A DNA stretch of 64,000 bases from assembly GCA_043228905.1 (NCBI GenBank), contig JBHGNT010000004.1, positions 12,462,001 to 12,526,000 on the forward strand, in the 5' to 3' direction. Origin of the DNA: Azolla caroliniana (lineage: Eukaryota > Plantae > Polypodiophyta). Below, one piece after another: positions 1 to 26,460 of this stretch (within the stretch, counting starts at the first letter, position 1; the number at the start of each line of letters is the position of its first letter). The position numbers were made by a program, and so were the translations under genes. Under the pieces are notes generated by a model. The model worked only from the letters and a program-made list of their open reading frames with translations, searched no databases and was not told where the DNA came from.

Positions 1-269
1 AAGAATTGACGATGTTTTTTTTTATTTTTGCCCAATACTTTCATATCTCTTGTTGCGTCCTGATAGTTTCATCCCTATCTTGATGATCATTAAGGGGCAA
101 TTCTAAACACCCTCCTTCCCCTTCCATTTGGCTTGACGGGTTTAAACCCTAATTTTCTCGAAAAAAAGACACATATTAAAGATGGCTATGGACAACCATA
201 GTACACAAAAATATTCCACAATACACAAGATTATACAAAACAATACACAAGATAATCAATAGATAAAAT

Positions 270-1095
270 AGTTATTCAAATCCAAGACCGAACAGTGGCA
301 GTAATCCAGGGCCGAATAGTGGCCACAACTGACTGTAGAATGGCGGCAGTGGAGGAGTGACGGCAACAGAGAGTAGAATGGCTTCAATGGAGAAGGAGTG
401 AACTCCTTCGGATTGAAAAGTGGCAGCAATACACGACCAAACAATAGCGCCAACTGAGTGTAGAATGATGGCAATGGATGAGTGAACTCCGTCAAATCGA
501 AAAGTGGCAGCAATCCAAGACCGAACAGTAGCAGCAACTGAGTGTAGAATGATGGCAATGAGGAGTGAACTCCGTCAGATCGAACAGTGGCAGATGAAGC
601 TTGGAACGCACAGTGATGACAACTGAGAGTAGAATGGCGTTAGTGGAAAAGGAGTTAACTCTGTCGGAACAAAAAGTGGCAACAATATACGACCGAACAG
701 TAGCGGCAACTAATTGTAGAATGATGGCAATGGATGAGTGAACTCCGTCAAATCGAAAAGTGGCAGCAATCCAGGACCGAATAGTAGCAGCAACTCAGTG
801 TAGAATGATGGGAGTGGAGGAGTGAACTCCATCAGATCGAACAGTGGCAGATGATGCTTGGAACGCACAGTGATGACAACTGAGAGTAGAATGGCGTTAG
901 TGGAAAAGGAGTTAACTCCGTCGGATCGAAAAGTGGCAACAATATACAACCTTGATAGTAGCGGCAACTGAGTGTAGAGTGGAGGCAATGGAGTGAACTT
1001 GGTAGATGATGCTTGGACTAAACAGTGGTGGCAACTGAGTGTAGAATGGCGGCAATGGAGGAGTGGACTCAACAGGGTTTAGCAACAGTGGTAGT
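270..1095. repeat. Tandem array of ~84-87 bp monomers with a ~257 bp three-monomer higher-order period
   Basis: The unit caactgagtgtagaat...gaactccgtc...aaaagtggcagcaat recurs. The variant gatgacaactgagagtagaatggcgttagtgg occurs at 615 and 872 (offset 257). Minus-strand ORFs 256-558 and 710-1072 repeat a 28-aa Pro/Leu-rich unit. Confidence 0.85.
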
Positions 1096-1382
1096 AATCT
1101 AAGCCAGAATACTCAACTAGAGTTGGCCCACGTGATGTGGCAAAGGATCCTACATAATGGACCTAAAGCTTACAACAAGATGTAAGCCAATGACACCCAT
1201 AAAATCAGAAATCAAGCATATAATCATAATATTTTGGACTAATGAGAGTAGGGTTTCACCCAATAAGAAGGATTTATGCAGGAAACATGTTGGAAGGAGT
1301 CAATACGAGGAGCATCCCATTCATCTTCTTGATCTACCTCAAGTATTTACATTTATCTCAACATTTGTTTTGACTTTTGAGC

Positions 1383-2012
1383 TTAGTTAGTTAGCTTATT
1401 AGCTACCTCCGAATATGACCATACCCAAATAGCTAATTACCTACCTCAGAATATGACCATAGTTAACTAGCTACCAGTAATAGCTAATTAGCTCCCTAAG
1501 AATATCATTGCCAGAATAGCTAATTAGCTACTATTCATAGCTATTTAGCTACCATATTAGCCAATTATATGCCTATAAAAATAGCTAATTAGCTGCTTAT
1601 GACTATAGCTAATTAGCTACCAGAATTGCTAATCCCCTACTAGAATAGCTATTGTACTAAACTATGGTAGTAGTTAATTAACTACTGCATTAAACTATGG
1701 TAGTAGCTAATTAGCTACTGCATTAAACTTTGGTAGTAGCTAATTAGCAACCACTTAGCTAATTATCTACTCATCTAAAGTATGGTCATAGCTAATTAGC
1801 TACCATACTAAACTATGGTAGTAGCTAATTAGCTAGTCACCTAAAGTATGGTAGTAGCTAATTAGCTACCAGTTAGCTAATTAGCGACGCAACTAAAGTA
1901 TGGTACTAGCTAATTAGCAACTATAACTAAAGTATGGTAGTAGCTAATTAGTTCCCACTTCACTATGGTAGTAGCTAATTAGCTACTCATCTAAAGTATG
2001 GTAGAAGATAAT
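1383..2012. repeat. Palindromic satellite (core TAGCTAATTAGCTA; 33 bp and 19 bp units, 52 bp composite), left part of array 1
   Basis: Direct reading, e.g. ctactgcattaaactatggtagtagctaattag with period 33 at 1682/1715. Confidence 0.95.
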
Positions 2013-2440
2013 TGTCATGAAAACATACATCTTGGCCTTACAAGGATTCGAACCAAAGACGTCTTGGTCTATATGTTAAACCTTTAACCATTATAATAAC
2101 ATATATGATGTATAGTTATAAGAAATGTATTATTAGTTATTACAAGATATTTAGAGTATTCTAGAACATTCTAGGATATTCCATGATTATATTAAATATC
2201 ATAAATATCTAAAATAATCTAGAACATTCTAGAATACTCCATAAGGACCTATAAATAGGTGTCTATTCAATCATCACAACTCATTCGGTTCAACACCAGT
2301 TTGTAGCCCCTTAGCCTACTCTTTGTAATCCTTGCTCTCTTATAATATAAACTCTCTTTCTATTTTTAGTGTTCTTTCTCTTTCTTTCTCTCTCTCTATT
2401 GTCATCTTATGTTTCTCTCTCCTATTCTCAAGTCACGACA
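2013..2440 (+). repeat. 5' LTR of chromovirus (428 bp)
   Basis: TG...CA ends, aligns with 6393-6825, TATAAAT at 2250. Confidence 0.95.
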
Positions 2441-2442
2441 GT

Positions 2443-2453
2443 TTGAACCGAAT
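2443..2453 (+). promoter_or_regulatory. Non-tRNA primer binding site TTGAACCGAAT (self-priming type)
   Basis: Exact reverse complement of ATTCGGTTCAA at 2283-2293, which lies 33 nt after the LTR TATA box. No TGG-type tRNA PBS follows the LTR. Confidence 0.8.
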
Positions 2454-2533
2454 ATCTCTCTTTTCTTCTTCTCCAACTTCTTCTTCTTATCTTAACCTTA
2501 TTCAAGAGAATCTTGCAATTTTCTCTCGCAACT

Positions 2534-5500
2534 ATGGAGTCCGTTAGCAAGCAAGAATATATGTGTGTTCTCTCTGAGCTCGACATGCTAACAACCAAAC
2601 TCGTGGCACTAGAGCATGAAAATCAAAGATTGTTGGGAGACCTACAACAAGTAAGTGCTGAGAAAGTACAACAATATGAAGATTTATCTCTACGGGTGCA
2701 TGAATTGGAGACTACTCTATTGGAACGACAAGCGGCGGAAGTTCAAACCTCGCCAAAGGAACCAATTAGATGATGTGTTAAACGAGTAAGTCAATGACTA
2801 GTAGTCCCTGTCATAAAAATACATTTGATGTCTTGAGCCAATTAGATAATGTGTTAAACGAGTAAGTCCTAGGCATTTGGACAACCCTAGGCATGTAACG
2901 TCCGTTCGTAGTTGTGGTTCCATTTCATCCGGTCAAGTTAGTTGAGTTTTCTCTGCACAAGTTGAGCTTAACACATCTAGGTGCCATCGAGTCCCAGCTT
3001 CTGCCCTCTTAGACTCTGGAGCCAACTCTTGTTTCATGGATCGTGAGTTTGTTGTAATGCATAATATTCAGTTGCATAAGCTCCCAAGCCCAATGTCTAT
3101 CGGAGTAATTGATGAACGCCCCATAGCATCAGGTGATATAGTTGAGGAGTCTGAACCAATTTGTGTAGTCCTAGGCAATTTGGTTAGTGTCATCTCATTC
3201 AACATCATTAATAGTCCAGAGCACTCCCTAGTTCTTGGTCTTCCATGGTTTGAGCTACATAACCCAACTATTGATTGGAGAAAAAGAACCATTGAAGAGG
3301 TCACAATACAGTCTAAGTCTCTTAAACATCCAACAAAGGATATGACATTCTAAAAGATTTCGACAATCTCTATACATCAATTACGTGAGGAAGGACGGAA
3401 GGAAGATATGTTGGTGTTCGTAGTTTTAGCAACTCCCACATCGAGCTCATAAGAATCGGAGATCTCCTGCCGGTGCACCCATATTTTTCGTTAAGAAGAA
3501 AGATGGTTCGCTTCATCTGGTCGTGGATTATCGAGGATTGAATAAAGTAACTATTCGAAACCGATATGACATTCCAAAAGATTTCGACAATCTCTATACA
3601 TCAGTTATGTGAGGAAGGACGGAAGGAAGACATGTTGGTGTTCATAGTTTTAGCAACTCCCACATCGAGCTCACAAGAATCGGAGATCTCTTGCCAGTGC
3701 TCCCATATTTTTCCATTAAGAAGAAAGATGGTTTGCTTCGTTTGGTCGTGGATTATCGAGGATTGAATAAAGTAACTATTCGAAACCGATATGCTCTACC
3801 ATTGATTTCGAGCCTTCTAGAACACCTCAGTGGAGCTAAGTATTTCACAAAGTTAGATCTTCGAGGTGCTTACAATCTTGTTCGAATTCATGCTGGGGAT
3901 GAATGGAAGACTGCTTTCCGTACTCGCTATGGCCATTTTGAGTATATAGTGATGCCATTTGGTCTCACGAATGCACCAACAGTTTTCCAACATATGGCGC
4001 ATGTTCCTCGATATTTTCATCATAATTTACCTGGATGATATCTTGATCTACTCAAGAACTCAAGATGATCATGATATACATGTTCGACAAGCTTTACAAC
4101 GGTTGTGTGAATATGGCCTCTATGCAAAATTCGAGAAGTGTAGTTTCAACCAGCGTCAAGTGGAATTTTTGGGGTACATAGTCTCTTCACATGGCATCTC
4201 TATGGATCCAGCAAAGGTTCAAACAGTTTTGGATTGGCAAACACCACAATCTGTGCGAGATGTACAATGTTTTTTAGGGTTTGCAAACTTTTATCGCAAG
4301 TTCATCAAAGATTATTCAAAGATTGTATTGCCCCTCACTCAACTGACATAGAAGAATCGACCATTTGTGTGGTGTATAAATGCAAACTCTGCATTTGAAG
4401 GATTAAAGCAAGCATTTACATCCGCACCAATTTTTATGCATGTTGATCCATTGAAGTGCTTTATACTCGAAGTTGATGCATCCGACTTCGCACTAGGAAG
4501 CCTATTATCCCAGATTAGCAATGATGGCCAACTGCACCCTATGGCTTTTCATTCACGGGAATTCGAAGTTGCAGAAATCAACTATGAGATTCACGACAAA
4601 GAGCTTCTTGCCATTGTGGATTCTTTTCAACAATGGCGTCATTTTTTGGAGGTTTTGTCTCAACAAATCATTGTCTATAATGATCACAAAAATCTAACAT
4701 ACTTCCAAAGTGCTCGAGGCTTGAGTCGTCGACAAGCTCGTTGGGCACAGTTCTTAACTCGTTTGGATTTCGCAATTTTATATCTCCCTGAGATTCAACA
4801 AGAAAAAGTAGATGCTTTATCTCAGCATTCGTATATGGAACTTCAACCAGGAGAGGCCGCATATGAAAGTCAGAAGCAAATCCTCTTGAGTCCTGACTGT
4901 CTACGACTAATGGCATTTCATGCTATAGACACACCCGGGGATTCAAGTCTTCTGGACCATTCGGGAGCATATTGAGACTGATGACATCGCCCAAGATATT
5001 CTGAACCATATTATCCCAGATCGTGCTTCTTGTTCACAATCTCAAAATCCTCGTCAAGACTACAACCAGTTCAATTGGCATGATGGTTTACTTTTTCAAC
5101 AAAATCTCTTATATGTGCCAGATGGTCCTTCTCGACCCCAAGTCTTGCAACAATGTCATGACACACCAATGGCTGGACATTTCGGCATCCACGAGACTTT
5201 GGCGTTAATTTCTCGAAGGTATTGGTGGCCACGATTTTGCCATTTTGTTACGGATTATGTTCGTAGTTGTGATACATGTCGTCGATCCAAAAAACCTCGA
5301 CATCATCCATATGGCTTATTACAACCAATGCCTATTCTTGAGAGTCCATGGAAATCTATTTCATTGGACTTCATTACGGATCTACCACCTTCCAAGGGTT
5401 TTGATTCTATTCTCACAGTAGTAGATCGTTTTACCACGATGGCACATTTTCTTCCCTGCACAAAGGCCATTACGAGCCAAGAGACAGCCGAGTTACTCAT

Positions 5501-6345
5501 GCGAGAGGTGTTTCGGCATCATGGTCTTCTTGATGATATTATCCGTGATCGGGGTCTCCAGTTCATCTCAAAATTTTGGCGGCACATTTTCAAACTCTTA
5601 CATACTTCTTGCAAACTCTCTTCTGGCTACCATCCAGAAACTAATGGGAAAAGTGAGCGAACCAATCAAACAGTAGAACAACATCTTCGTTGTTTTGTCA
5701 ACTATCAACTCAAAACATTCTTCTACTGGATATTCCCCATTTTTTGCAAACATTGGGTACCATCTTCGTTGAACTATGCTTGAACATCCCGAACTCCCGA
5801 CAAACCCGACTCCAAGAAGTTCAAGATATGCTTTTGAATCATTTATGTGATGCTCAAAACACTCAAAAGAAGGTTGCCGACCGTCATTGATGTGATTCAT
5901 CTACTACGTTTCAAGTGGGAGATCGAGTATGGCTTTTACAAGGTCGCATTAAAACAACCCGAGCTTGCTGCAAATTGGATTATCAACATTTTGGCCCATA
6001 TGTGATATATGGTAAGATCAATGATGTGGCATTTCGTGTTGATCTTCCCCGTCATATGCATCTTCACCCGGTCTTCCATGTTTCAGTTTTGGAGCCGTAC
6101 ACAACCAACTCTATTCCAAGCCGTCTTACATCTCCCCCCACCTCCAGTCGAAGTTTCAGATGGCTCCGAATATAAGGTTGTTGCCATTCTTGACTCCAAG
6201 ATCGTTCGCAACAAATTGTATTATTTGGTTGATTGGTTAGGATATACACCTAATGATCGAACATGGGAACCTTCGAGAATCTTGTTAATGCCTCCGAAAT
6301 GGTTCCTGCGTTTCACAACAAATATCCCCATTAGCCAAGTCCGAA
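2534..6345 (+). pseudogene. gag remnant and pol (protease, RT, RNase H, integrase, chromodomain)
   Basis: ALLDSGANSCFMD (~3003), [22 protein letters not shown] (RT), EVDASDFALG...YEIHDKELLA (RNase H), HDTPMAGHFG/PWKSISLDFIT (integrase), YKVVAILDSKIVRNKLYYLVDWLGYTPNDRTWEP (chromodomain, ~6170-6270). Many frameshifts. Confidence 0.92.
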
Positions 6346-6392
6346 ATCTTGTCTTCCGACTCGTGGAACTCGTCGTCGAAAAAGAGGGATAT

Positions 6393-6825
6393 TGTCATGG
6401 AGACATACATCTTGACTTTACAAGGATTCGAACCAAGGACATCTTGCTCTATAATTTAGACCTTTAACCATTATAATAACATATATGATGTATAGTTATA
6501 ATAAATGTATTATTAGTTATTACAAGATGTTTGGAGTATTCTAGAACATTCTAGGATATATTCCATTATTATATTAAATATCATAAATATCTAAAATATA
6601 AATACTCCATAAGGACCTATAAATAGGTGTCTATTCATTCATCACAACTCATTCGGTTCAACACCAGTTTGTAGCCCCTTAGCCTTCTCTTTGTAATCCT
6701 TGCTCTCCTATAATATAAACTCTCTTTCCATTTCTAGTGTTCTCTCTCTCTCTCTCTCTCTCTCTCTCCTTCTCTACCTTCTATTGTCATCTTATGTTTC
6801 TCTCTCCTATTCTCAAGTCACGACA
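6393..6825 (+). repeat. 3' LTR of chromovirus (433 bp)
   Basis: Homologous to 2013-2440 and preceded by the PPT. Confidence 0.95.
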
Positions 6826-7757
6826 CTAATTAGCTAAGTGGCAGCTAATTAGCTATTCTACTAAACTATGGTAGTAACTAATTAGCTTAGTGGTAGCTAA
6901 TTAGCTATTGTACTAAACTATGGTAGTAGCTAATTAGCTACCATTTAGCTACTTAGCTACTATATTAAACAATGGTAGTAGCTAACTAGGTACCACTTAG
7001 CTAAACTATTGTAGTAGCTAATTAGCTACTGTACTAAACTATGGTAGTAGCTAATTAGCTACCAGTTAGCTAATTAGCTACTCAGCTAAAGTATGGTAGT
7101 AGCTAACTAGTAGCTAATTAGGTATTGTACTAAACTATGGTAGTAGCTAATTAGCTACCACTTAGCTAATTACCTACTGCATTAAACTATGGTAGTAGCT
7201 AGTTAGCTACCACTTAGCTAATTAGCTACCATTTAGCTAATTAGCTATTGTACTAAACTATGGTAGTAGCTAATTATCTACCAGTTAGCTAATTAGTGAC
7301 TTAGCTAAAGTATGGTACTAGCTAATTGGCCACTATAACTATAGTGTGGTAGTAGCTAATTAGCTACTGTACTAAACTATGGTAGTAGCTATTTAGCTAC
7401 CACTCAACTAAAGTATGGTAGTAGCTAATTAGCTACCACTTAAGTAATTAGTTACCACTTAGCTAGTTGGCTACTCAGCTAAAGTATGGTAGTAGCTAAC
7501 TGGTAGCTAATTAGCTATTGTACTAAACTATGGTAGTAGCGAATTAGCTACTATACTATAGTAGTAGCTAATTAGCTACCACTTAGCTTATTAGCTATTG
7601 TACTAAACTATGGTAGTAGCTAATTAGGTACCACTTACCTAATTAACTATTGTACTAAACTATGGTAGTAGCTAATTAGCTACCACTTAGCTAATTAGCT
7701 ACTGTACTAAACTATGGTAGTAGCTAATTAGCTACCACTTAGCGATAAAGCTAATAG
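6826..7757. repeat. Palindromic TAGCTAATTAGCTA satellite, right part of array 1
   Basis: The same units as 1383-2012 resume immediately after the LTR and TSD. Confidence 0.95.
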
Positions 7758-10700
7758 GTATGTCTATTTTATTACGAAGGTCAATTTATTTATTAGGTTC
7801 AAGTGAATGCATCCAAATATCAAAGTTCAACTATGAACATTCGGGTCTCTTAAGCCACAGTTTGTGAGACGCATGAAGGATCGATACACATGTTGTTGCA
7901 ATTACCATGTACAAATGGGTTTTCTCAAGGACTCTGTTAATCTACAACATCACGAGAGCGCCTCCCGAACTAATGCAGTTTGCACTTGTGAGTGCCCAAT
8001 TTGTCAATCAAGCCCGCATGAACACTGTAAATCATCTAAGCATGTTATCTCTTCCATGAGTTGTCTTTTATATTCAGTATTGTGTTCGAGAAAAACTAAG
8101 GCCATCTTCCACAGTCATAAATGTGTCATGGGTTTGAGCATGTTATCTCTTCCATGAGTTGTCTTTTAGATTCAGTATTGTGTCCGAGAGAAACTGAGGC
8201 CATCTTGCACAGTCATAAAATTAATGTGTCATGGGTTTATGTCAAGATTGTGGCCCTAGTAGATTTAGATGGTGTCCAAATGAATTGAGTAGTGAAATAT
8301 TAAGCTCCGTCATGTTATTTGAGCCAATTGACACCAATTTCGAAGGAAAGGTGTGTAAAAGAAAATATCTAGTTAGGAAATCGCTTTAAAAACGCCTCCC
8401 TATTTGTAGTATCTTTAGGAAAGTTCATTAAACACAACTTCATTTAACCATGGTAAGCTCATCAGTTTAAGACTTGCATATCTGATTTTCCAAATGATGT
8501 AGTAGTCTCAGTAGTAGATTTCGCAGAGAAATATACTTTCAAGTAGCAAAATGAAATTCAATATATGCATTGGTGTTCAGTGCAGGTAACCATTTTTGTG
8601 CACATAACATATTTTCGAGTTTCAGGTGATGTTAAAAAAGTAATTCATTTTTTTTATTTCTGATGATAAGAAGCATGATACCTTGTTCGCCCAACATTGT
8701 TTTAACTTACATTGGCAATGGTTATTAGCTAAACGTTTGGAGCTTACTCAAGATTGGGTCTGGTTTGAACGATAAGGAAACAGTTAATGGAGAAACAAAA
8801 AAGAATGTTCACTTCACACGTTAAGGACGTGGAGATACTCTGAGTGATGTCTTAAATGTTGGGGATAATTTCGGTGTAAATGTAGAAGAAGACAATTCAG
8901 AGGGTGTTGATTTGTACATATTGAAGTGCATGGTTAGTAAACAGTGTGCAACGCAGAATATATTAGATGCTTGGGGAAATGTTGTATCTACTGAGACATT
9001 CTACATCAAAGGTATTTTTTATGCAAGACTAGATTATTACGATTATGTGTATAGGCTATTAGAAGACAAACCAGTGGCGTACATGTACTCTCATTTGGTC
9101 AGGTGCATCAATGTCCCAATGTTGCAATAAAATAGCTGCTCAGGTTTATACACAGTTAGTGATAATGTGTATGAATGTATTTACAATAGTATGCTATGGA
9201 ATTTGTAGCTACAAGTAGCAATTACCAATTTTCTTGTAAAACAAACAAAGCACATGTATTGCAAATAAACAGTTTAATGGACCTATTTGGGCGTTTGTTT
9301 TTTTATATACAGTATACTTTTTGTGCTTCTTTCTCAATAAAATCGTGTGTCTTTTTTATATACAGTCTTCTTTTTGATATACAGTTTAATAATATCGTTT
9401 AGGGTTCTTCTTTCTGAGATATAGATTTACTGAAGTGAACCATGTACAAGTTAAAATAGTTTGCATAATTTTAAGAAAAAACACTATCATGAAATCAACA
9501 ATCTTGAACATACTCTTAAAATTACACAGTAGATAAGTTATTGAAAACAAGCAATTTAATTCTTCATTGATTAATCTGTCATCAATTTACATATTTATAA
9601 CATCCCATTGCAAATGTCTTCAAATCGCCTATAAACAACTAAGATCTTGCTAGTTAGTGGAACTTCTCTACATATATGATTTGCTTACCGAGCTCGGTAT
9701 GGAGTCCACAACCATGTAGCTAATTGGCAGCTCAATGTTTACACCAAGTAGTGTTCAGGCATTTCATTGGGTAGAATGAGATAGAATCTGCAAATGTTGA
9801 AGTAATGCCGGAAATGTTCTGTATCCAGAATCAACGTACTGACGGCATTATAATTAAGCCAAGTGGCCCAAAAATTAGAAAGTCTTTTGAATCTTGCAAC
9901 ATCCTTCTGGTCACAATTCTCTCGTGTCCACTGACCCTTGAAATGTTGTCACCACTTCGGGAAGAATCTTTCTACACACTTCCACACATCTGTACGTGGT
10001 TTTTCACTCCAAATAAACAAATCAAAGTATTGCACAACCCAGTCTAGAAATTGATTTGCGTCCCTCCTTGGTGTCATATATCTCACACTCATAAGGACTT
10101 TATCAAGCTCCAAGATCAAGGCTCTTCTATCAACTTGTAATGGTTTAGGTTTCCATTCATGTATCTGAGCCTCTGTTACACAAATTACTGGTAGCACACG
10201 ATCAATTTCAATCAACTCAAGTTCTCTTGGCACAATTGGTGTTCTTTTCCTCTTCAAACCCCTGGTCGATTGTGTTGGGCTTGGCTTCACATTCTGGTGC
10301 TCTTGTGTTGTCGACTTAGTCATTGGCTCGGTGCATGTAGATATTGATCTGGTTGATATCAGCCCACTGGTATCACATTCTGCATCTACATGCAAAATCA
10401 GATCATCTGTGCAACATGCTTGATCAACTTGTGTGACCAAGATCATTTGTGTCAGTTGCTACATCTACTTTCAAGATGTGGCCCTCTAAACACGTAGCAA
10501 CATCAACAGTTTCCAAATTGCCATCGGCCTTAGGAGCAATAGATTCAATCCCTTTAGACTCTGCAACATCAGAAAACACCAACATATTCACACACAAAAT
10601 AACTAACAGTCTCACAAAACAATATAATGAACATGAAAGATTTTCCATCATCGAACAACATGAACATAATTATCTTGGAGAAACATCATAGAGTTGCATT

Positions 10701-11367
10701 ACATAATGTGGATCAAGCAACAACCAATCTGAGGTTTTACTTGTCCAAATAGATCATAGTAAAACTTCATAAAACCCTAGGAAAGTTGCTAACAATCATA
10801 TCCCACTAATAAGTAGTTCGCTCAAATTCAAGAGCCCATTGACTGAGTAACTGGTCTTGTCCCTGATCGTGGCCCCTTCTTTAGCCTTTTTCTAGTTGGT
10901 TGCCCATTTAGCCTTGCTCCTTTGACCTTTGACCCATTGCGCAAATGTGTCCTCCTCCGACAACCTTTCCATCACCTCAGCAACGGCTTGCACGTGAACC
11001 GTGTCTTGCGCTAGGTTTTCCAATACAATGAGATCTGTTTGGACATTATCAGTAGTTGGGCTTAGTGGGGTGGAATCAAGGTTTGGGAATCCAAAGAAAT
11101 GTTGCATCAAGTGTTCAAAAACACTATTGTTGTGAACCTTAGATTTACATGTGGTTTCCAATATTTTATGGCCTTTCACATCGTTGCCTAATTCAGTACC
11201 ATCTTCCAAAAGAATAGGGTGGATGGAGCTGATCTGAAGGAGATGTGATGGTAGGACTCTTACTTTCAGCCACGTTGGCAACTATCTCCTCATCGGTTGC
11301 AACGTCATCAACACCAGACTCCTCATGCGCCCTCCTTAATCCACAAGATTCTACAACAACATTGGCT

Positions 11368-12717
11368 CTAATTAGCTACATCTTAGGTAACTAGTTATTC
11401 TTCTTAGACTATAACAATAGCTCATTAGATACCACTGAGCTAATTAGCTACTTCACTTAGGTATGGTACTAACTAATTAGCTACCACTCAACTAATTAGC
11501 TAGTCTTTGTCAATATGGTAGCAACTAATTAGCTACTCTACTAAAGTATGATAGTAGCTAATTAGCTACCAGTTAGCTAATTAGCTACTCAACTAAAGTA
11601 TGGTACTAGCTAATTAGTCACTATAACTAAATTATGGTAGTAGCTAATTAGCTACCACTTCGCTAATTAGCTATTGTACTAAAGTATGGTACTAGCTAAT
11701 TAGCCACTATAACTAAAGTATGGTTGTAGCTAATTAGCTACCACTTAGCTAATTAACTACTTTACTAAACTATGGTATTAGCTCATTAGCTACCACTTAG
11801 TTAATTAGTTACTCAACTAAAGTATAGTAGTAGCTAATTAGCTACTCAGCTAAAGTATGGTAGTAGTACTTAGCTACCATTTAACTAATTAGCTACTATA
11901 CTAAAGTATGGTACTAGCTAATTAGCTATTATAACTAAAGTATTGTAGTAGCTAATTAGCTACCACTTAGCTAATTAGCTACCACTTAGCTAATTAGCTA
12001 ATGTACTAAACTATGGTAGTAGCTAATTAGCTTCCACTTAGGTAATTAGCTACTCAGTTGAAGTATGGTAGTAGCTAATTAGCTACTATACTAAACTATG
12101 GTAGTAGCTAATTACCTACCACTTAGCTAATTAGCTACTCAGCTAAAGTACGGTAGTAGCTAATTACTGTACTAAACTATGGTAGTACCTAATTAGCTAC
12201 CACTTAGATAATTAGGTACTGAGCTAAAGTATGGTAGTAACTAATGAGCTACCACTTAGCTAATTAGTTACTCAACTAAACTATGGTAGTAGATAATTAG
12301 CTACTATATTCAACTATGGTAGTAGCTAATTAATTATCACTTAGCTACTTAGTTACTCAACTAAACTATGGTAGTAGCTAATTAGCTACCACTTAGCTAA
12401 TTAGCTATTGTACTAAACTATGGTAGTAGCCAATTGGCTACCACTTAGCTAATTAGCTACTTAGCTAAAGTATGGTAGTAGCTAATTGGCTACCACTTAG
12501 CTAATTAGCAACTCAACTAAAGTATGGTAGTAGCTAATTGGCTACCACTTAGCTAATTAGCTACTCAGCTAAAGTATGGTAGTAGCTAATTAGCTACCAC
12601 TTAGCTAATTAACTACATGTTAGCTAGTTAGCTACTACACTATAACCATAATAGCTAAATAGTTTCCACACTTTATACGACTTAGCTAATTAACAAAGAT
12701 GGAACTAATTAGCTACA
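11368..12717. repeat. Palindromic TAGCTAATTAGCTA satellite, array 2 (fills intron 11351-12742 of the minus-strand gene)
   Basis: 52 bp period visible (gctaattggc at 12481 and 12533); same units as array 1. Confidence 0.95.
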
Positions 12718-15700: not shown

Positions 15701-18124
15701 GCGGCTTCAAGATCTGCAATCGAAACAGGTAGTGTTCGGATTGCCCAAGTTTAGTGGCCGAAAGGCACAAATTTGTGAAGCCTGCCAGCTCAGGAAGCAA
15801 CACCGACTTCCTTTCCCCAACGAGCGAAACCGGAGCCGGAACAAGCTCGACCTTATACACTCCGATGTGTGGGGGCTGGCACAAAACGTTAGTCTTGGCG
15901 TGAGCCGATATTTCGTCTCCTTCATCGACGACCACACGCGACACACGTGGATCTACCTCATTGATAGGAAGAGCGAAGTCTTCGACTGTTTCCAGGACCT
16001 CAAAGGGTTCGTGGAAACGGAAACGGGACGAAAGATCAAGTGCTTGCGGTCGAATGGCGGGAAAGAGTACTTTTCTGGTCAATTCAACGGTTATCTAAAA
16101 CAAATGGGAATTCGGCACGAATTCAGTTGTAGATACACGCCAGAGCAGAACGGTGTGGCCGAGAGAAAGAATCGGTCAGTTGTGGAAGCGGCACAGGCAA
16201 TGCTGGAGGAGAAGAGATTGCCCAAGTTCTACTGGGCCGAGGCGGTAAGGACCGCGGTATACATCCAGAACCGGATCGAAGACAAAGTGTCGGCGCACGA
16301 GCTGTATTTCGGAACGAAGCCTAACTTGCGACACTTGAGGGTGTTCTGTAGCATTGCGTATGTGCATATACCGAAGGAGAAAAGGAGGAAGCTGGACGCA
16401 AAGGCCGAGAAATGCATCTTGGTCGGTTACTCGGACGAGCAGAAGGGTTGTAAGTGCTATAACCCTCGCACCAAACAAGCGCGTGTTAGCTGCGACGTTG
16501 TGTTTGACGAGTCCGCGTCCTAGTACCAGCCCCCGACTCCAAACCCCGACTCCAATCCGAGTTCTGATGATGAGGTCAGCAAGGCCGAGCTGCCTCCGGA
16601 TGAGCCTGAAATCGAGACCCGCGAAGAGAGTCCGATTTCGCTTCGTTTAAGTGGACCGATTGGACGACTGAGTCGGTACGACCAGTCCGATGAAGAGCCG
16701 GCAAGTAGTGGAGACTCGGCTGTGCATTCCCCGCGCAGGAAGCCGAGGAGACGGCTTACGCGCAAAGAGGAAGGGAAGAAGAAGGTGTCGGATTCCAGCA
16801 CGGATAGGAACGAGTCAGACCGACGCGAGTCCGACTCCGAGGGAACCGGTGACGGGTGTTTAAAGGTGAAGTCCGCGTCGACCGAGAAGGCCTCGACATC
16901 GGCTAATGCGAGGTTACGCCGATCTACCCGCCAGAAGAATCCTGTTTTGCAGTTCGGATACAACGAGTACATGGCGCATCATTATGCGTACATGACCCGT
17001 GTAGCGGAAGTGGTGAGCCGGAGAGCTACGCAGAAGCGGCTGAAGACGCGAATTGGCGTGCCGCGATGGAGGAAGAGATGTACGCATTGGCGGAGAACGA
17101 GACCTGGGACCTGGTTGACGCACCAACAGGGGTAAAACCGATCAGGTTTAGGTGGGTGTACAAGGTCAAGTACAACACCGATGGCTCGGTTAACCGGTAC
17201 AAGGCTCAGCTAGTGGCAAAGGGCTACGCGTAGAAACACGGCATCGACTATGATGAAACGTTTGCGTTGGTCGCGAAAATGACGACCGTCCGTGTTTTGC
17301 TCGAAGTAGCCGCGGCCAAGGGGTGGCACTTACATCAGATGGATGTAAAGAATGCGTTCCTGCACGGTGACCGTGAGGAACAGGCGTACATGGTACAACC
17401 CCCAGGATTTCACTCCGGAACGAACTCCTCGGCAGTATGCCGACTGAAGAAGTCCCTTTACGGACTGAAGCAAGCCCCGTGTGCCTGGAATGCGAAGATC
17501 ACGCAACAACTGCGTCGGATGGGCTTCGTCACGACAAAATCGGACTCTTCCCTGTTCATCCGGAAAGGTCGACTCGGACCGGTTAGTATTTTACTGTATG
17601 TTGATGACTTGGTCATCACCGACACCGACCTAGGTGAAATCGACCGCATGAAGCTTCAGCTTGCGGCATCGTTCGACATGAAGGATCTGGGGGACCTTCA
17701 TTACTTCCTCGGGATCGAAGTGATCCGTACCCCCGAAGGCATATTGATCAGCCAACGTCATTACGTGCTGGGTATGCTCTTTAAATTCGGGATGGTAGAC
17801 TGTAAGTCCGTCTCGACTCCTCTGGACAGAACCGTCAAGCTTCGTCCCGATACGGGAAAGGCATGCGACCCAACGAGGTTCCGACAAATTGTCGGAAGCC
17901 TCATATACTTGACAATCACCCGACCCAACCTCAGTTATCCGGTCGGGGTGATCAGTCAGTTCATGGCGCGACCTACCGAGGAGCACCTTCAGTGTGCGCG
18001 ACGCATACTTCGGTATGTCAACGACACTAAGGACCGGGGACTAGTATATCTGTTGGGTGATAGGTCCCTCCGGATGGGAAGGGAGAAGATCAGTGCTGAT
18101 GAACAAACTACAGAGAGCCGACTA

Positions 18125-18370
18125 CGGAGAGCCGGATGGTGCAGACCCGGTATGAACCGGATGAGGAGTACCCGACTATGGAGAGCCGGATGGTGCAGAC
18201 CCGGTATGAACCGGATGAGAAGTACCCGGCTACGGAGGGCCAGATGGTGAAGACCCGGTATGAACCGGATGAGGAGTACCCGGCTACGGAGAGCCGGATG
18301 GTGAAGACCCGGTATGATCCGGATGAGGAGTACCCGGCTACGGAGAGCCGGATGGTACAAACCCGGTGAG
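18125..18370 (+). repeat. 54 bp tandem repeat in U3 of family B LTRs (also ~22960-23205 and ~37480-37640)
   Basis: Unit ggagagccggatggtgcagacccggtatgaaccggatgaggagtacccggctac; 18-aa periodicity in the ORF track. Confidence 0.92.
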
Positions 18371-18535
18371 AACCGGATGAAGAGACATATTCATAAATAT
18401 GTTTCTGAGAGTCCATCGAGGCTATATTTGTAAATAGTTGAAAAGTCATATTAGTATAAATATGACTTAGGGCAAACTTTTAATAGGAGGTTGTTATTCT
18501 TGTTGGTGCAAGAATAGAGTGAGTGCGTAACAGTG

Positions 18536-18576
<41 letters not shown>

Positions 18577-18878
18577 GTTGTCGCCTATGTTGTAACCGCC
18601 GCCTGAGGCGAAGATCTGTGAGCATGAGGTCGTTCTCTCAGTGAACTCACTGTTGTATATTCTTACATAGTGACAGTTTGCAGCCTGTGGGCTGCCGTGG
18701 TTTTTCCCCCCTTGTTTGGGGTTTTTCATGTTAAACATCCTGCGTACTCGTCTCTTCTTTGTGTCGCGTTTTATTTCCTGTTTTTTGTGCATCATTCTAA
18801 GCTCGGTTGTGGCCGAGCGTTGCGCATAAGCAGCGTTGAGTTACCGTCAAGTGGTATCAGAGCAAAACAACATAGAAA

Positions 18879-21800
18879 ATGGACGAATCGTTTGGCAGCA
18901 TGTTCAAGCTCACCGGCTCCAACTATTCAGTGTGGAAGTCGAAGATGAGGGACATGCTCGTGGTTAAAGACCTCTGGTTGCCGGTTCAGTTCGGGGACAA
19001 GAGACCGGACAAAATCGACGCCGCGATATGGGAGGTGATGCACATGAAGACAACAGCGTACATACGGTGCTTCAGTGACATGAGCCTATACAACAACTTC
19101 AATGAAGAGAGCAAGGCTCATGAGCTCTGGGAGAAGATCGGCATAATGTTCCAAAACAAAAATGCTATTAATCAGGTTTCGGTATTCCGGAAGCTAGTAA
19201 GACTCCGGTACCAAGATGGCTCCATCATGGCGGAGCACATGAATGGCTTCCAGGGGCTGATACACCAGGCAACTTCATTGGAAGTACCTCTCGCCGACGA
19301 GGTACTAGCACTACTCCTGTTCGGCTCCCTCCCGGATAGCTGGGAGGCGTTGGTTGTCACTTTGGGCAACGCCGGGTCGGGAGGAAAACGGGTATCCCTA
19401 GCAAGAGTAAAGTCGAGCTTGCTAGATGAGGAGGCAGGTCGGAAACATAAAGACACGAGCTCCGACTCCAAAGCGCTCCTTACCAAATCGGAACACGGAA
19501 GACATAGAAACCGTAGTCCCCAGAACCAGGAGAAGTCGGGGACACGGTCAAAGTCAAGGGGGAGGCCCACTTGCTTCTATTGCGGCAAGCCGGGACACTT
19601 CCAAAAGAACTGTCGGCATTCCCGAAAAGATAAGGAGACCGACGGTACCGATTCGAAGCGGACCCCGGACCGGAACGGTAAAGACCGGAGGGGACCGGAC
19701 CGGAAGGGAACGACGGCAATCGCGGCAAGTGAAGAAGAGTTGATGCTCATCACCGAGGAGAGTGAGATAAACCTTGCCGGCGACGAGATGACCTGGGTGG
19801 TAGACTCCGGAGTGTCGTTCCACCTCACCCCGGACCGGAAATGCTTCTCATCCTACTCAGCCGGTGATCACGGCTGTGTCCGGATGGGGAATGAAGGTAC
19901 ATGCCGAATTGTCGGCATAGGAGACGTGTGGTTGTTGACACCAACTGGATGCAAGTTGCTGCTGGGGAAGTCCGACACGTTCCGGACGTTCGAGTGAAAC
20001 TGATATCAGCCGGTCGGCTAGATGATGATGGCTACATGGGTAGCATCCGGAACGGTGTCATGAAGTTCAGCAAAGGGAGCCTGATTGTGGCTCGGGCCCG
20101 GAAGGTAAACACACTGTACCTGATGAATGCCCGGTTATGTCCGGAAGAAGTGAACGTGGCATCCGACACTGCCGGTGAGCTGTGGCACAAGAGACTGTGT
20201 CATATGAGCGAGAAGGCGATGAAGAGGCTTGCAGACGACAACCTCATTCCAGTGAAGAACGTGCACTTACAGAAGTGCACTGATTGTCTGGCCGGTAAGC
20301 AGAGCCGGACCTCCTTCCGACCAAGGCCATCGATGAGACGTAATGCACCACTGGAGTTGGTGCATACGGATGTGTGTCAAGTAGACGCGAAGTCACATGC
20401 CGGAGCGCAATACTTTGTGACGTTCATAGATGACCACAACCGGAAGTTGTGGGCCACACCGTTGAAGACGAAGGATCAGGTGTTATCCGTCTTCAAAGAG
20501 CTCCACGCGAGAGTGGAAAGAGAAACCGGCCAGAAGTTGAAGGCTGTTCGAGCAGATAACGGAGGAGAGTACCGGGGGCAGTTCGAGGAGTACTGCCGCT
20601 CGAAGGGAATCCGGCTCGAATTTACCATGCCGAAGACGCCGGAACTAAACGGACTGGCCGAGAGGATGAACCGGACCATAATGGAGAGGGTCTGGAGTAT
20701 GCTAGCGCATGCAAAACTACCCAAGAAGTTTTGGGCTGAGGCACTGTCGACGGCGACATACGTGATAAATAGATCACCCTCAGTACCCTTGGACGGAGAC
20801 ACGCCACAGAGAGTGTGGACCGGTAAGGAAGTATCCTACCGGCATCTGAAGGTGTTCGGGTGTCTTGCGTACGTGCATGTAGCCAAGGACCGGAGAGGAA
20901 AGTTAGATCCAAAGACCTGGCCATGCATATTCCTCGGTTACGGTGACGATGAGTTCGGCTACCGAGTGTGGGACCTGGTCGACAAGAAGGTATTCCGGAG
21001 TCGAGATATTATCTTCATGGAGAACAAGACGCTCGCCGACTGGGAGTCGGAGAAGAAGATAATGAACTCTGAGCCGACCTGTAAGGATCGACTCTACGAT
21101 GAGCAGACCCAACCGGAAAGAGACCGGTTAGCACTCGAGGGACCAGCCGGTTACGGTGAGGATACCGAACAGGGTGAAGGAGAAGTAGAGGAAGCTGAAA
21201 CCGGAACCGACCAAGACCCCGAATCAGGTTCAGATGAAGAGCAGATGGATGAGCCGGTCACCGAAGCCCAGAGACGGAGATATCCTCTCAGAGAGAGAAG
21301 GGCCCCCCGGAGATTTGCGGATGCAGAGCATGTTCTGTTGACCGATGAAGGGGAACCGGAAAGCTTCGAAGAAGTGAAGGAAGACACGCACAGCCGAAAA
21401 TGGTTATGTGCCATGCAGGATGAGATGGATTCCCTGCATGAGAACCATTCGTACGAATTGGTGGAGTTTCCGAAAGGAAAGCGGGCACTCCGAAACAAGT
21501 GGGTGTACAAGTTGAAACCGGGAGATGACGGCAACCCCCCGAGATACAAAGCCAGGATCGTGGTGAAGGGGTTCCAGCAGAAGAAGGGCGTGGACTTCGA
21601 CGAGATATTTGCCCCGGTAGTAAAGATGACCTCCATCCGGACGGTGCTTAGTATAGCGGCAAGCATGGACCTCGAGGTAGAGCAGCTAGACGTGAAGACG
21701 GCATTCCTTCACGGCGACCTCGAAGAGGAGATCTACATGCAGCAACCGGAAGGATTCGTGGAGAAAGGGAAGGAGCACCTGTTATGCCGGTTGAAGAAGA

Positions 21801-22924
21801 GCCTCTACGAGTTGAAGCAGGCCCCCCGGCAATGGTACCGAAAGTTCGACTCCTTCATGACCGATCATGGGTACCACAAGACGCAGGCCGATCACCGCGT
21901 GTTTGTGAAGAAGTTTGAAGGTGGTGACTTCCTGATAATCCTTCTGTACGTGGACGACATGTTGATCGTCGGACGGGACCAAGTCAAAATACGGATGCTG
22001 AAGAAGGCTCTCAACTGGACCTTCTCAATGAAAGACTTGGGTCCGGCAAGACAGATGCTGGGGATGCACATCATTCGGGACTGGTCAACGAAGCAATTAT
22101 GGCTGTCACAGGAGAAGTACGTGACAAAGGTGCCTCTCTGGTTCAACATGTCGGATGCGAAACCGGTCGGATCGACACTTCTAGCAAACTGCAGGTTATC
22201 TGGTAAGCAAAGCCCGAAGACGAAAGGAGAGAAGGCGGATATGATGAAGATTCCATATGCCTCTGCTGTCGGGAGCTTAATGTACGCAATGGTGTGTACC
22301 CGACCGGATATAGGATACGCAGTGGGAGTGGTGAGCCGGTTTATGAGCAATCCCGGCAAGGAGCACTGGAACGCGGTCAAATGGATACTCCAGTATTTGT
22401 AGGGCACTTCAAATATGTGTCTCCGATTCGGCTCCGGAAAACCTCAACTTGATGGTTTCACCGATTCGGACATGTCAGCTGATGTGGATACTAGCTGGTC
22501 TACATCCGGGTATGTAATGACATATGCAGGGGGAGCTGTTTCGTGGCAGTCGAGGCTGCAGAAGACGGTTGCATTGTCAACCACGGAGGCGGAGTACATG
22601 GCAACGGTGGAAGCCGGCAAGGAAATATTATGGATAAAGGACTTCATCGGAGAGCTCGGTATCCGGCAAGAGGAATACCGACTCTATTGCGACAGTCAAA
22701 GTGCCATCCACCTTGCTAAGAATGCGGCCTACCATTCCCGGACGAAGCATATCCAACGGAGGTATCACTGGATCCGGGAAAGAGTAGATGACCAGGAGTT
22801 CGCACTGACGAAGATTCACACAGCTGAGAACGGGTCAGATATGCTGACCAAAGTGCTGACACCCGACAAGCTGGACGCATGCCGGAAGAGGATCGGACTG
22901 GTAAGACACCCCATGCCGGAGTGA
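18879..22924 (+). pseudogene. copia gag-pol polyprotein (one frameshift near 19960, one stop at 22400)
   Basis: CFYCGKPGHFQKNC zinc knuckle, WVVDSG protease, HTDVC/ADNGGEY/PELNGLAER integrase, QLDVKTAFLHG/LYVDDM RT, TDSDM...STTEAEY...HSRTKHI RNase H. Confidence 0.95.
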
Positions 22925-25900
22925 AGGGGGAGTTTGTTGGGGGACAGGTTCCTCCGGAACGGAGAGCCGGATGGTGCAGACCCGGTATGAATCGGATGAG
23001 GAGTACCCGGCTACGGAGAGCCGAATGGTGCAGACCCGGTATGGACCGGATGAGGAGTACCCGGCTACAGAGAGCCGGATGGTGCAGACCCAGTATGAAC
23101 CGGATGAGGAGTACTCGGCTACAGAGAGCCGGATGGTGCAGACCCGGTATGAACCGGATGAGGAGTACCCGGCTACGGAGAGCTGGATGGTACAGACCCG
23201 GTGAGAACCGAATGAAGAGACATATTCATAAATATGTTTCTGAGAGTCCATCGAGGCTATATTTGTAAATAGCCGAAAAGTCATATTAGTATAAATATGA
23301 CTTAGGGCAAACTTTTAATAGGAGGTTGTCATTCTTGTTGGTGCAAGAATAGAGTGAGTGCGTAACAGTGTACAGAGAGAGAGAGAGAGAGAGAGAAAGA
23401 GGTCGTCGCCTCTGTTGTAACCGCCGCCTGAGGTGAAGATCTGTGAGCACGAGGTCGTTGCCTCAGTGAACTCACTGTTGTATATTCTTACATAGTGAAA
23501 GTTTGCAGCATGTGGGCTGCCGTGGTTTTTCCCCCCTAGTTTGGGGTTTTCCACGCTAAACATCCTGCGTACTCGTCTCTTCTTTGTGTCGCGTTTTATT
23601 TCCCATTTTCTGTGCATCATTCTAAGCTCGGTTGTGGCCGAGCGTTGCACATAAGGAGCGTTGAGTACCCGTCAATATCGGACCGGTCCAATCGCAGAGT
23701 TAGTCGGCTACACCGATGTTGATTGGGCTGGCAACGCCGCCGATCGCCGATCCACGTCTGGATACGCGTTCTCCCTCGGGAGTGCCGCGATCGCGTGGAG
23801 CAGTAAGAAGCAACCGACAGTTGCACTATCGAGCACCGAAGCTGAGTACCGAGGAGCGGCTGTTGCGACATGCGAAGCCATATGGTTGAAGCGGCTACTT
23901 ACGGACCTGTAAGAGGAGGTGTCAGATCCGACGACGATCTACTGCGATAACCTCAGCAGCATCCAGCTCGCGAAAAACCCCGTTTTCCATGCACGGACCA
24001 AGCACATTGAGATGCATTACCATTTCGTCCGTGAGTGTGTCCTTTCCGGTGAAGTCGAACTTCAGTACGTTCCGACGGATCGGCAGACTGCCAACATCTT
24101 CACCAAGCCTCTTGGTCTGGACAAGTTGCGGCAATTCTCTGGTGTGCTCGAATTGCGTCACCTCGACGTGCCAAACTTGAGGGGGAGAACAGTCCCGAAC
24201 GACCAAGCAAAGCAGCAGGAAAGGAGCGGAGGCCGCGACACCGAGTCGGTTGACTCGGTTGTTGACTCGGTTGTCGAGTTCGACTTCGGATCGGCTGAAG
24301 AAGACGAGGGTGGACCCGCGGAAAAGTTCGGAAGTGGACAGAAGGGGAGCAGCCGAAGGAGAGAGCCGAAGCCAACCACGCATGGGGAAGATGACGCCAT
24401 CGAGGGCGAGAAGACCGAAGACGAGTTGGAGACAGCCAACTCGAATGAGAGCGAAAACCGATCGGAGGTAGCCGAGTCGGTTCGGATGTTTGATTCAGGT
24501 ATGCTGAATCAACCGAGGCCCAAGCGGAAGAAAAGGAAGTAGGAGAAGCGTCAACACTGCAACAACAGAAGAGCTGATAAGGGCCGCATGAGCAGACAAG
24601 CCGACCGGAAGGGTCGAAGCGCGAAGAGTCGAACAGGTTGAGGAGCGCGAGCAAGGCGTGAAGCCTGGAGGAACCGGAGCTGTGAGCCCGAGGATCCCGA
24701 AGAGCCTCGAGTTGAGCTTGAGGGGGAGTGTTGAGAGACAAGCTCAACATCGGCCGGATCAGCTGAAGAAGCCGAGGACCAGATCGGTTGGGACCGATCG
24801 GTTAGGTCAAGTGCGTAAACCAGTACGCAGACCGGTGCGTAGGTAGGGCCGGATCGGTGCGGAAATCGGGAGGCCGTTAAGAAAGATATTCCGTGAGGAA
24901 TATATTTGGGAGTTAGTGTAGGAGCTCTCAATGAGCATTGAAATACTGTCAGTACTTCTATCGGTCCTTCTAGGACTTGTATAAAAGTGTTCATTGAACA
25001 CACGTATGTATAGAGTGTGGTGAATAGAGATTGTTTTTGTTGAATATAGTTCTTGTGTTTTCTCTCTCTCACTCTCTCTGTCTCTCCCGCGTATACTGCG
25101 TAAGCTCAAGCTCTCCATTAAACCTGAGTTTTCTTCCTTCTGTTCGGTCTTCATACTTGCTTCCGCACATTACTTTTACAAACCCTAAACCACTTAAGGG
25201 AAACACAAAACCTAATCATCACTAAAGGCAGAAATAAATCGTACTATGAAGTTCTGTCAATTAGAAACACACCTACTGCTACACCCCGATCTTCGAGACA
25301 TCCTTGTTTGGGACTCCAATGATTTCTCCCTATTCGATTTTTGGGAAAGATGAACATGCACCAAAGTTACAAACAGTTATCAGAAAGGAAAACAAAAAGT
25401 TTTTTTAATATGTAACTGATACATACCTGGACGAGGATCGACTTGGTCGTGTGTTGTAGCTCTAAAAGTGCAATGTTGATCTCAGAGTTTTTGTGTTGTT
25501 GTGGGAGCTTCATCTGCGTTCATGCTCAAAGTACTCCATCTGTTTGGAGTTCAAACTCAAACTCAAGATTATCAGGAATTTGATGACATTCAAGTCAACC
25601 TTAGGTGATGGCACTATTCCCATGTTCCACTACGTCAGAAACCAAAGTTCAAATATTTGAGTATTCTCATAAATAAAATGACATGTATTTAACTAATAAA
25701 ACATAACATTTCGTAAACCATCCTTATGATTTTCCCACAAAAAACTATCTAAACAAATAGCTAATTAGATGTGGCCATTTTAGTAGCTAATTGGCTATAA
25801 TAGTGTTTCCACTTCCATGCTTTTACCCATGTACATTATAGTTCTACATCCTAAAATGCATATAAGACATTTGAACATTTTACATCCTAAAATACTTATA

Positions 25901-26460
25901 ATATGGATGTAGACATTTACTTATTCTATAAATTAGTCTGTGTGTATCACGATGTTCTACTTCAAATTGTAATTATTTATGAATATGCCTTCATAGATTG
26001 AGGAATTGTCTACTATTATCACACTAACGATAGGTTTCTCCCTTCTTTTCTCTCTTCTTCATCATCATCATTTTCTTCTATCTTCTATGATTATCACACT
26101 CAGAGTCAGGACTGGTTTCTGTCTTCTTTTTCTGTCTTCTTCTTCTTCTTCTTCTTCTTCTTCGTCGTCGTCGTCATCTCTTTTGTTCTTCTTTCTTCCT
26201 TCTTCTTGATTCTTTTGCACTAAAATCATTTTTTTCTTTTGCTTTTTGTTGGGGTTTTACTTACATTTTTTTATAAATACGTATTATACCTGTTTTTTCA
26301 AACGTACATTAAATACCTTATTGGACAAATGTACATGAAATTTAACTAAACAACATTGAGGTATAGTAGGTACTATACAAATTATGAGGTACTATACGTA
26401 TTTAAACGTTAAATACGGGTACGTAAACAAGCATGGTGCATAGCCATAGTTGCTTTCTCA

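Follow-up and report, generated by a model that had tools for sequence, protein, structure and literature searches.

A dead Sola2-type transposon in Azolla caroliniana belongs to a family with a convergent accessory gene and intronic palindrome arrays

What kind of element combines a broken transposase, a second gene facing it and two arrays of a single palindrome, and what might the second gene and the arrays do for it? The locus that raises this question lies within 64,000 nucleotides of the fern Azolla caroliniana (assembly GCA_043228905.1, contig JBHGNT010000004.1, positions 12,462,001 to 12,526,000 of the forward strand), the whole of which we call the window. An original prediction, made from the letters alone, had read this locus as a Sola2-like DNA transposon with a transposase gene, an accessory gene and its own intronic repeat, and had likened the accessory protein and repeat to the Arabidopsis protein VANC21 and its target motifs. 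Comparison with other copies supports a two-gene element of Sola2 type that has an intronic repeat of its own, through common terminal inverted repeats (TIRs) and target-site duplications (TSDs), the pairing of the two genes and the tie of the arrays to the element. The copy in the window is a dead, rearranged member of a multi-copy family of Sola2-type cut-and-paste transposons.

Shared termini, paired genes and a family repeat

A DNA search gave 818 candidates, 40 of which were scored. The 38 copies that were fetched comprised 19 of the window subfamily, 10 of a younger subfamily found by protein search, and 9 matches to the accessory gene, taken from the 54 that had no listed transposase partner. 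Both TIRs lay within the fetched span in 19 of the 38 copies; in these the 4-bp TSD was exact in 15, had one mismatch in 2 and was worse in 2. The termini are thus common across copies: the TIR is 25 bp long, with 24 of its 25 bases complementary, and the element ends read GGG...CCC, which fits the 5'-GRG ends reportedly given as a Sola2 feature in the 2009 description of Sola. Full copies measure 9.5-15 kb and young ones 11.6-12.6 kb. Against their majority sequence, old copies show 93.9-97.0% identity. Young copies are 99.7-100% identical in transposase exon 2, near-identity that suggests that the family moved recently, and at least 82 near-identical copies belong to this burst. One copy (G000:C6:12771952-12785873, L015-L016) sits in the accessory gene of an older family copy, with TSD AGCA, and a young copy (L051:9826 to L052:339) has a 255-bp near-perfect tandem duplication at the meeting point of the 3' ends of both genes.

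Among the matches listed, an accessory match lay within 20 kb of the transposase, in convergent orientation, at 54 of 82 transposase places, and no other geometry was found at any of the 82. Transposase sequence was present at 7, and the right TIR at all 9, of the unpaired accessory matches that were fetched. The predicted pair of arrays built from one 14-bp palindrome was also recovered, with 22 and 16 exact copies of the motif; the final 38 kb of the window has none. Young copies hold 19-33 and 31-47 exact motifs per array. Motifs recur at 19/33 bp in the window copy and, in young copies, at 20 or 18/20/33/42 bp; the core palindrome is common to both introns and both subfamilies, and the spacers and unit length differ. 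A 33-bp motif dimer had 436 exact matches in the genome (control, 0), and element-specific sequence lay within 1.5 kb at 28 of 30 array loci, these being the first 30, all on one contig and partly overlapping. The TAGCTAATTAGCTA arrays are seen to be almost confined to the element. The two genes therefore co-occur, the repeat is tied to the element and the termini are shared; the pattern that was to refute the original prediction, genes or satellite found independently elsewhere with no shared termini, did not appear.

The window copy has been heavily altered (Table 1). Both long terminal repeat (LTR) insertions that had been predicted bear TSDs and LTR pairs. The first, decayed and of Gypsy type from its pol motif order as judged by eye, is missing from other element copies, and at the second, other copies join 14329 to 25186. 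A further LTR element (18549-23673) is nested inside the second insertion, and related LTRs recur near 29024, 37841 and 39721. The proposed limits of the element had to be moved. Its right end is not 26459 but the TIR, and matches to other copies stop at 25828; its start is not 1150, since positions 1-1165 are the element's own left arm, inverted relative to other copies. Seven of 10 other copies, and an eighth in part, carry this segment in the opposite orientation directly inside the left TIR, and the inversion junction has CTA microhomology. No left TIR was found within 120 kb upstream, and no TSD pair can therefore be read for this copy. The 84-bp tandem array of the left arm (356-1070) lies upstream of the transposase, is unrelated to the palindrome and has an 83-bp unit in young copies.

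The spliced plus-strand transposase with DFAExY/QNEIQ motifs was located as exon pieces. In the window copy the middle of exon 1 is lost; in intact copies this part bears a weak helix-turn-helix (HTH) match (HTH_11, E 6e-5, under the Pfam cut-off). In addition, the catalytic core has lost about 505 bp at 8765-8768, directly after the SDG motif and including the GHGKGEHDG catalytic segment, so that this copy is unable to encode an active transposase. The same deletion occurs in two other copies (G000:C20:144751-145745 and C5:6594759-6595738) and, being common to several copies, suggests that deleted copies were likely mobilised in trans. In young copies the transposase has 862-863 amino acids in two exons, is open in 8 of 9, and carries DFAENY (464), SDDKKHD (511), SDG (546) and GHGKGEHDG (581). 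These motifs agree by eye with the published Sola2 alignment (PMC3627910, file 10; this and the other papers cited were available in part, and our statements about them hold for those parts). The likeness extends over DF(A/S)ENY..Q.EIQS.HW, SD..HD, SDG and HGK..DG (PMC3627910), and the transposase is assigned to Sola2 on its sequence. Named relatives come from Ceratodon, Cryptomeria, Taxus and Adiantum, animal-type relatives match at E 1e-12 to 1e-19, and the core has no sequence match in PDB. The ratio of non-synonymous to synonymous substitution rates (dN/dS), calculated here and below from one young copy against the old majority sequence, is 0.12-0.34 over parts of the transposase.

The accessory gene and its protein

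On the opposite strand, the predicted convergent spliced gene was found, with its RING-like and NIF/HAD-like exons located, and two further small exons (25539-25427 and 25329-25273) were added to the earlier model. The X1 and X2 contigs of a relative, which come from one study, are about 95% identical and are RNA only by guess, remove three GT-AG introns of the accessory gene, two as predicted and one exposing a 57-nt exon; one X2 contig removes the array intron of the transposase, with a short side of 21 bases. Neither the accessory array intron nor the exon 5-6 junction is spanned by any contig among those examined, and no RNA data set is listed as containing the exact sequence. Among 9 young copies, 8 have an open frame of 615 codons through exons 1-5, all 9 have an open NIF exon, and all 9 keep the GT/AG ends of the predicted intron 5, which holds array 2.

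The accessory dN/dS is 0.22 for exon 2, 0.28 for the RING exon, 0.21 for the NIF core and 0.72 for the linker, and the three domain exons are under purifying selection. These values bear directly on the idea that the second gene was picked up as a fragment from the host and is a passenger without a role. NIF and RING are ordinary host modules and the catalytic motif of the NIF domain is altered, as this idea would have it; against it stand dN/dS values of 0.21-0.28, the kept splice sites and the same convergent layout in divergent elements. The selection signal already largely refutes the passenger explanation, which we regard as almost certainly wrong.

The NIF domain scored 25.6 and 31.3 bits against PF03031 in intact copies (cut-off 21.8). 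NIF/FCP1-like HAD phosphatases carry the catalytic motif DxDx(T/V); the corresponding position reads ELDKV in the window family and DLNGV/L in relatives, and owing to this change the domain is predicted to be inactive. PP7L, to which we return below, is reportedly an inactive phosphatase. The RING-like finger presents eight candidate ligands (C-C-C-H-H-C-C-C) and matches Pfam RING families only under the cut-off (best member, E 8e-4). The helical domain encoded by exon 2 (the N-domain) has 129 relatives and belongs to no Pfam family. Nine of these relatives were looked up, of which five were named, all from Adiantum, and one Adiantum gene model, P0144, contains the whole order of N-domain, coil, RING and NIF.

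Structure models of the N-domain reached predicted local distance difference test (pLDDT) scores of 88.5 and 93.7. Homology of this domain to the PMD/Transposase_28/DUF1985 group is possible, as a lead and not a result. Its T..D.....GL...G spacing and a later W resemble, by eye, the PMD rows of a published supplement (PMC5418596); the count for this spacing is 18 of 70, with 0 in shuffles, which indicates family conservation only. The profiles of the group, PF10536 and PF04195, were not among the 25 of 63 families shown at E 10, and searches of the source genome with both gave no match. A dynamin stalk, suggested by the first atlas query, was rejected as a likely coiled-coil effect with a low recognition score.

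Two further sets of repeats were observed. Telomere-like AATCAGAAACCCT repeats occupy 14085-14329 and 25181-25215 in the second intron of the accessory gene and are longer in young copies (L052:6260-6620); they include AAACCCTA, which we take to be telo-box-like. Another array family, with 37/146/367-bp units rich in TGCATACGCGCGTAC, lies at 43990-45574 and 34725-34914, likely within LTR-element DNA.

Table 1. Features of the transposon copy and its insertions, in window coordinates.
Feature	Position	Strand	Remarks
Element left arm, inverted	1..1165	-	84-bp tandem array at 356-1070; transposase exon 1 begins here (137 to 1, ~46 codons)
Transposase exon 1, 3' part, to GT donor	1163..1342	+	92% against young-copy exon 1
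Palindrome array 1, TAGCTAATTAGCTA core, transposase intron	1385..7745	.	19- and 33-bp spacing; split by LTR insertion 1
LTR retrotransposon insertion 1, outside family	2013..6825	+	TSD ATAAT/CTAAT (1 mismatch); LTRs 87.7% identical
Transposase exon 2, broken	7780..9208	+	98-bp duplication (8039-8219), stops, ~505-bp deletion
Accessory last exon, linker and NIF (FCP1-like HAD) domain	9595..10643	-	PF03031; ELDKV replaces DxDxT
Accessory exon 5, poorly conserved linker	10834..11350	-	3' splice junction putative; dN/dS 0.72
Palindrome array 2, TAGCTAATTAGCTA core, predicted accessory intron 5	11365..12720	.	
Accessory exon 4, coiled-coil end and RING-like finger	12743..13076	-	eight-ligand pattern
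Accessory exon 3, predicted coiled coil	13161..13304	-	acceptor used in X1, X2, X3 contigs
Accessory exon 2, ~150-aa helical domain then long helix	13387..14051	-	both splice sites used in contigs
Nested LTR retrotransposon insertion 2, outside family, in accessory intron	14330..25180	+	TSD AACCC/AACCC; LTRs 88.9% identical
Accessory exon 1b, 57 nt	25273..25329	-	revealed by spliced contigs
Accessory exon 1, predicted start codon, basic leader	25427..25539	-	donor used in X1 and X2
Right TIR, 25 bp, ends CCC	25804..25828	-	degenerate palindrome copies just inside

Related loci and known systems

A set of 80 divergent Sola2 loci related to the family, from other plants, was drawn from metagenomes, and most of these loci end before a second gene could be seen. 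Ten have accessory-type pieces downstream on the opposite strand. NIF pieces were found in L124 (Pfam E 8e-15) and L131 (4e-6); the RING pattern occurs in L122, L171 and L188-190, the last three of which represent a single element; and L134 carries the N-domain (hhalign 89.7%, E 1.8e-6), as do its near twin L139 and, weakly, L140 and L171. The membership of L140 is weak (hhalign 1.2%), and L171 reached E 0.02 with a broadened profile, which included L139 and L140 and makes their own scores circular. No TIR pair was found in the 11 metagenome loci checked. The transposase intron is at the same place in 26 of the 52 loci examined and missing from 18, with no probe match in 8. A 10-mer recurs five times or more in 9 of the 26 related introns (at most four in shuffles); each is different, and one is that of the window family. 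In a midpoint-drawn tree, which holds unlabelled animal-type matches beyond the plant loci and no labelled Repbase Sola2, all accessory-bearing loci fall into one 25-row group (98/89) and the NIF-bearing loci into a 9-member group (99/94). One group, which has Taxus and Cryptomeria matches (L147, L154, L163, L173 and others), is without the transposase intron, and its short loci show no accessory piece. At L192:3658-4917 an intronless related transposase is followed by a same-strand RING-bearing open reading frame (ORF; Pfam E 5e-5), and ORFs that look B3-domain-like by eye lie beside a related Sola2 element at L189:14360-16224 and L190:11895-13759.

Sola2 elements, plant Sola2 elements of such size and two-gene Sola elements are known already. 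Cluster_4006 of Ceratodon purpureus is a catalogued 10.9-kb Sola2 with a 4-bp TSD and a 26-bp TIR (PMC12973397); it shares with the window family the first 11 TIR bases, GGGTGAAAGCA, the 4-bp TSD and a size of about 11 kb. Compared by description, it differs in that only a 'Sola2' domain is listed, with no accessory gene or array described in the part of the catalogue available (PMC12973397). The premise that Sola elements are essentially single-ORF was too strong: Sola2 with Fanzor1 (PMC3627910) and the Ectocarpus element Sola1-1_Ec32, whose ParB-methyltransferase on the opposite strand is proposed to modify the element's own DNA (PMC12477816), are both in print. As here, a Sola transposase is joined by a second gene, but the accessory protein there is unrelated to the helical domain, coil, RING-like finger and NIF domain of the window family, and the available parts of those papers make no mention of intronic palindrome arrays. 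Neither the accessory gene with its arrays nor the TAGCTAATTAGCTA motif was found in a literature search whose scope ended short of the original Sola description, Repbase and Dfam. Both features of the window family are new to the literature as searched, and Repbase or Dfam may hold the family.

Three other systems share parts of this design. VANDAL elements combine an accessory gene with a family-specific motif in tandem repeats within non-coding DNA, and VANC21 binds such motifs in introns and other non-coding parts (PMC5735166). They encode a Mutator-like transposase, whereas the window family is Sola2-type with a 4-bp TSD; its accessory protein has no DUF1985 Pfam match and carries RING-like and NIF modules, unlike VANC; and binding and hypomethylation, predicted for the present family, were demonstrated for VANC (PMC5735166). 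MAIN, MAIL1 and MAIL2 with PP7L likewise tie a helical domain related to transposable elements (TEs) to short DNA motifs, one of them palindromic, and MAIL3 fuses PMD to a phosphatase domain, comparable with the NIF domain here (bioRxiv 2024.09.27.615353; PMC5418596). PMD is reported to be structurally like the DUF1985 of VANC, and PMD proteins use short motifs against Polycomb (bioRxiv 2024.09.27.615353). These are angiosperm proteins with a PPP-type phosphatase, whereas a HAD/NIF domain is found here in a non-seed-plant transposon, and the homology is putative. Finally, Retand LTR retrotransposons carry antisense TRP28 ORFs and family-specific tandem arrays, and resemble the window family in the opposite-strand gene, the Transposase_28-like lead and matches of coiled-coil type (PMC11963269).

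What may read the arrays

The layout matches that of VANDAL and VANC, with motifs amassed in introns, and we propose that the accessory protein binds the palindrome arrays and shields the element from host silencing, a proposal whose chances we put at about even. The transposase would pair the 25-bp TIRs and insert with a 4-bp duplication, as expected from Sola2 biology. The N-domain, a possible remote relative of PMD, Transposase_28 or DUF1985, would read the palindrome, and spacings of 19-20, 33 and 42 bp would put the sites on one helical face. The intronic arrays would supply many sites without disturbing reading frames, as for VANC21 targets, and the RING-like finger and predicted pseudo-phosphatase would act on host chromatin or transcription factors, bringing them in or displacing them, and so keep both genes expressed.

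Several observations weigh against this proposal. Half or more of the changes in old copies are C>T or G>A, and these copies were thus likely methylated. The 71 N-domain members had no PMD, Transposase_28 or DUF1985 Pfam match at E 0.01, the first atlas query returned dynamin stalks and not PMD or Transposase_28, and the nearest atlas features, those of Transposase_28 clusters, reached 0.87-0.88 (below 0.9, with 92-113 features in common). The longest spliced contig (X1) exits the element inside exon 3 and may therefore stem from a truncated copy; the exon 5-6 junction lacks a contig, so that the fusion of NIF to RING rests on one automated gene model. Several long related loci have no recognisable accessory piece, and only 9 of 26 related introns are clearly repeated, most of their units not being palindromic. 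The palindrome is also found just inside both TIRs: all 9 young copies have it at position 45, and 8 of the 9 have two copies of it in the 70 bp next to the right end. Binding by the transposase would fit this placement equally well.

This last placement favours a different explanation, in which the palindrome is the transposase's own subterminal site, amplified in introns to act as a decoy or in autoregulation; the accessory protein would serve transposition as a cofactor, as MURB does for MURA, and would not itself recognise the array. The weak HTH in transposase exon 1 and the reported MURA-MURB binding (PMC12973397) are consistent with it, but at least 60 sites far from the ends would exceed what end pairing needs, and the established functions of RING-like and NIF modules indicate host-protein targets, not strand transfer. 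We consider this explanation unlikely, though the most probable of the alternatives.

Alternatively, the accessory protein might work in trans, with host proteins as its targets: it could ubiquitinate a silencing factor, for instance, or shield the phosphorylated tails of RNA polymerase II (Pol II). The arrays would be neutral slippage expansions of a subterminal motif, tolerated in introns. The variation in array length among young copies, the many related introns without an array and the lack of any DNA-binding family for the N-domain would all agree with this. However, the 14-bp core is kept in two introns while spacers have been replaced between subfamilies, and neutral drift is not expected to spare the core, though the matches were chosen by core likeness. 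We rank this second among the alternatives and think it improbable.

It is also conceivable that the accessory protein binds the arrays but represses the element, as a brake on copy number. Host PMD proteins are required for transposon silencing (PMC5418596), and convergent transcription could yield double-stranded RNA. On the other hand, the accessory gene stayed open through the recent burst, and the TE-encoded analogues tested so far, VANC, are anti-silencers (PMC5735166). We therefore hold a brake to be very improbable.

If the accessory protein does shield the element by binding its arrays, the proposal might be widened: moss and fern Sola2 elements may own a sequence-specific anti-silencing system in which one protein joins a DNA-binding domain, possibly of a non-seed-plant PMD/VANC/TRP28 branch, to a ubiquitin ligase finger and an inactive phosphatase of the Pol II-tail type, the domain evolving together with the intronic arrays of each family. 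We offer this wider form tentatively, with less than even prospects. How bound VANC-type proteins undo silencing is a stated open question (PMC5735166), and opposition to Polycomb by TE-encoded PMD proteins is a hypothesis (bioRxiv 2024.09.27.615353). In the Azolla family, intact copies with recent mobility, a candidate site of 14 bp and an accessory protein to which its likely effector modules are fused make the VANC question directly testable. Two further gains are a conserved plant domain, confidently modelled and with no relative of solved structure, and a large young Sola2 family; active Sola clusters in plants have been counted as rare (9 of 3203, together with Ginger; PMC12973397). Should the wider proposal be true, such systems would be as old as early land plants and would extend into a second transposase superfamily.

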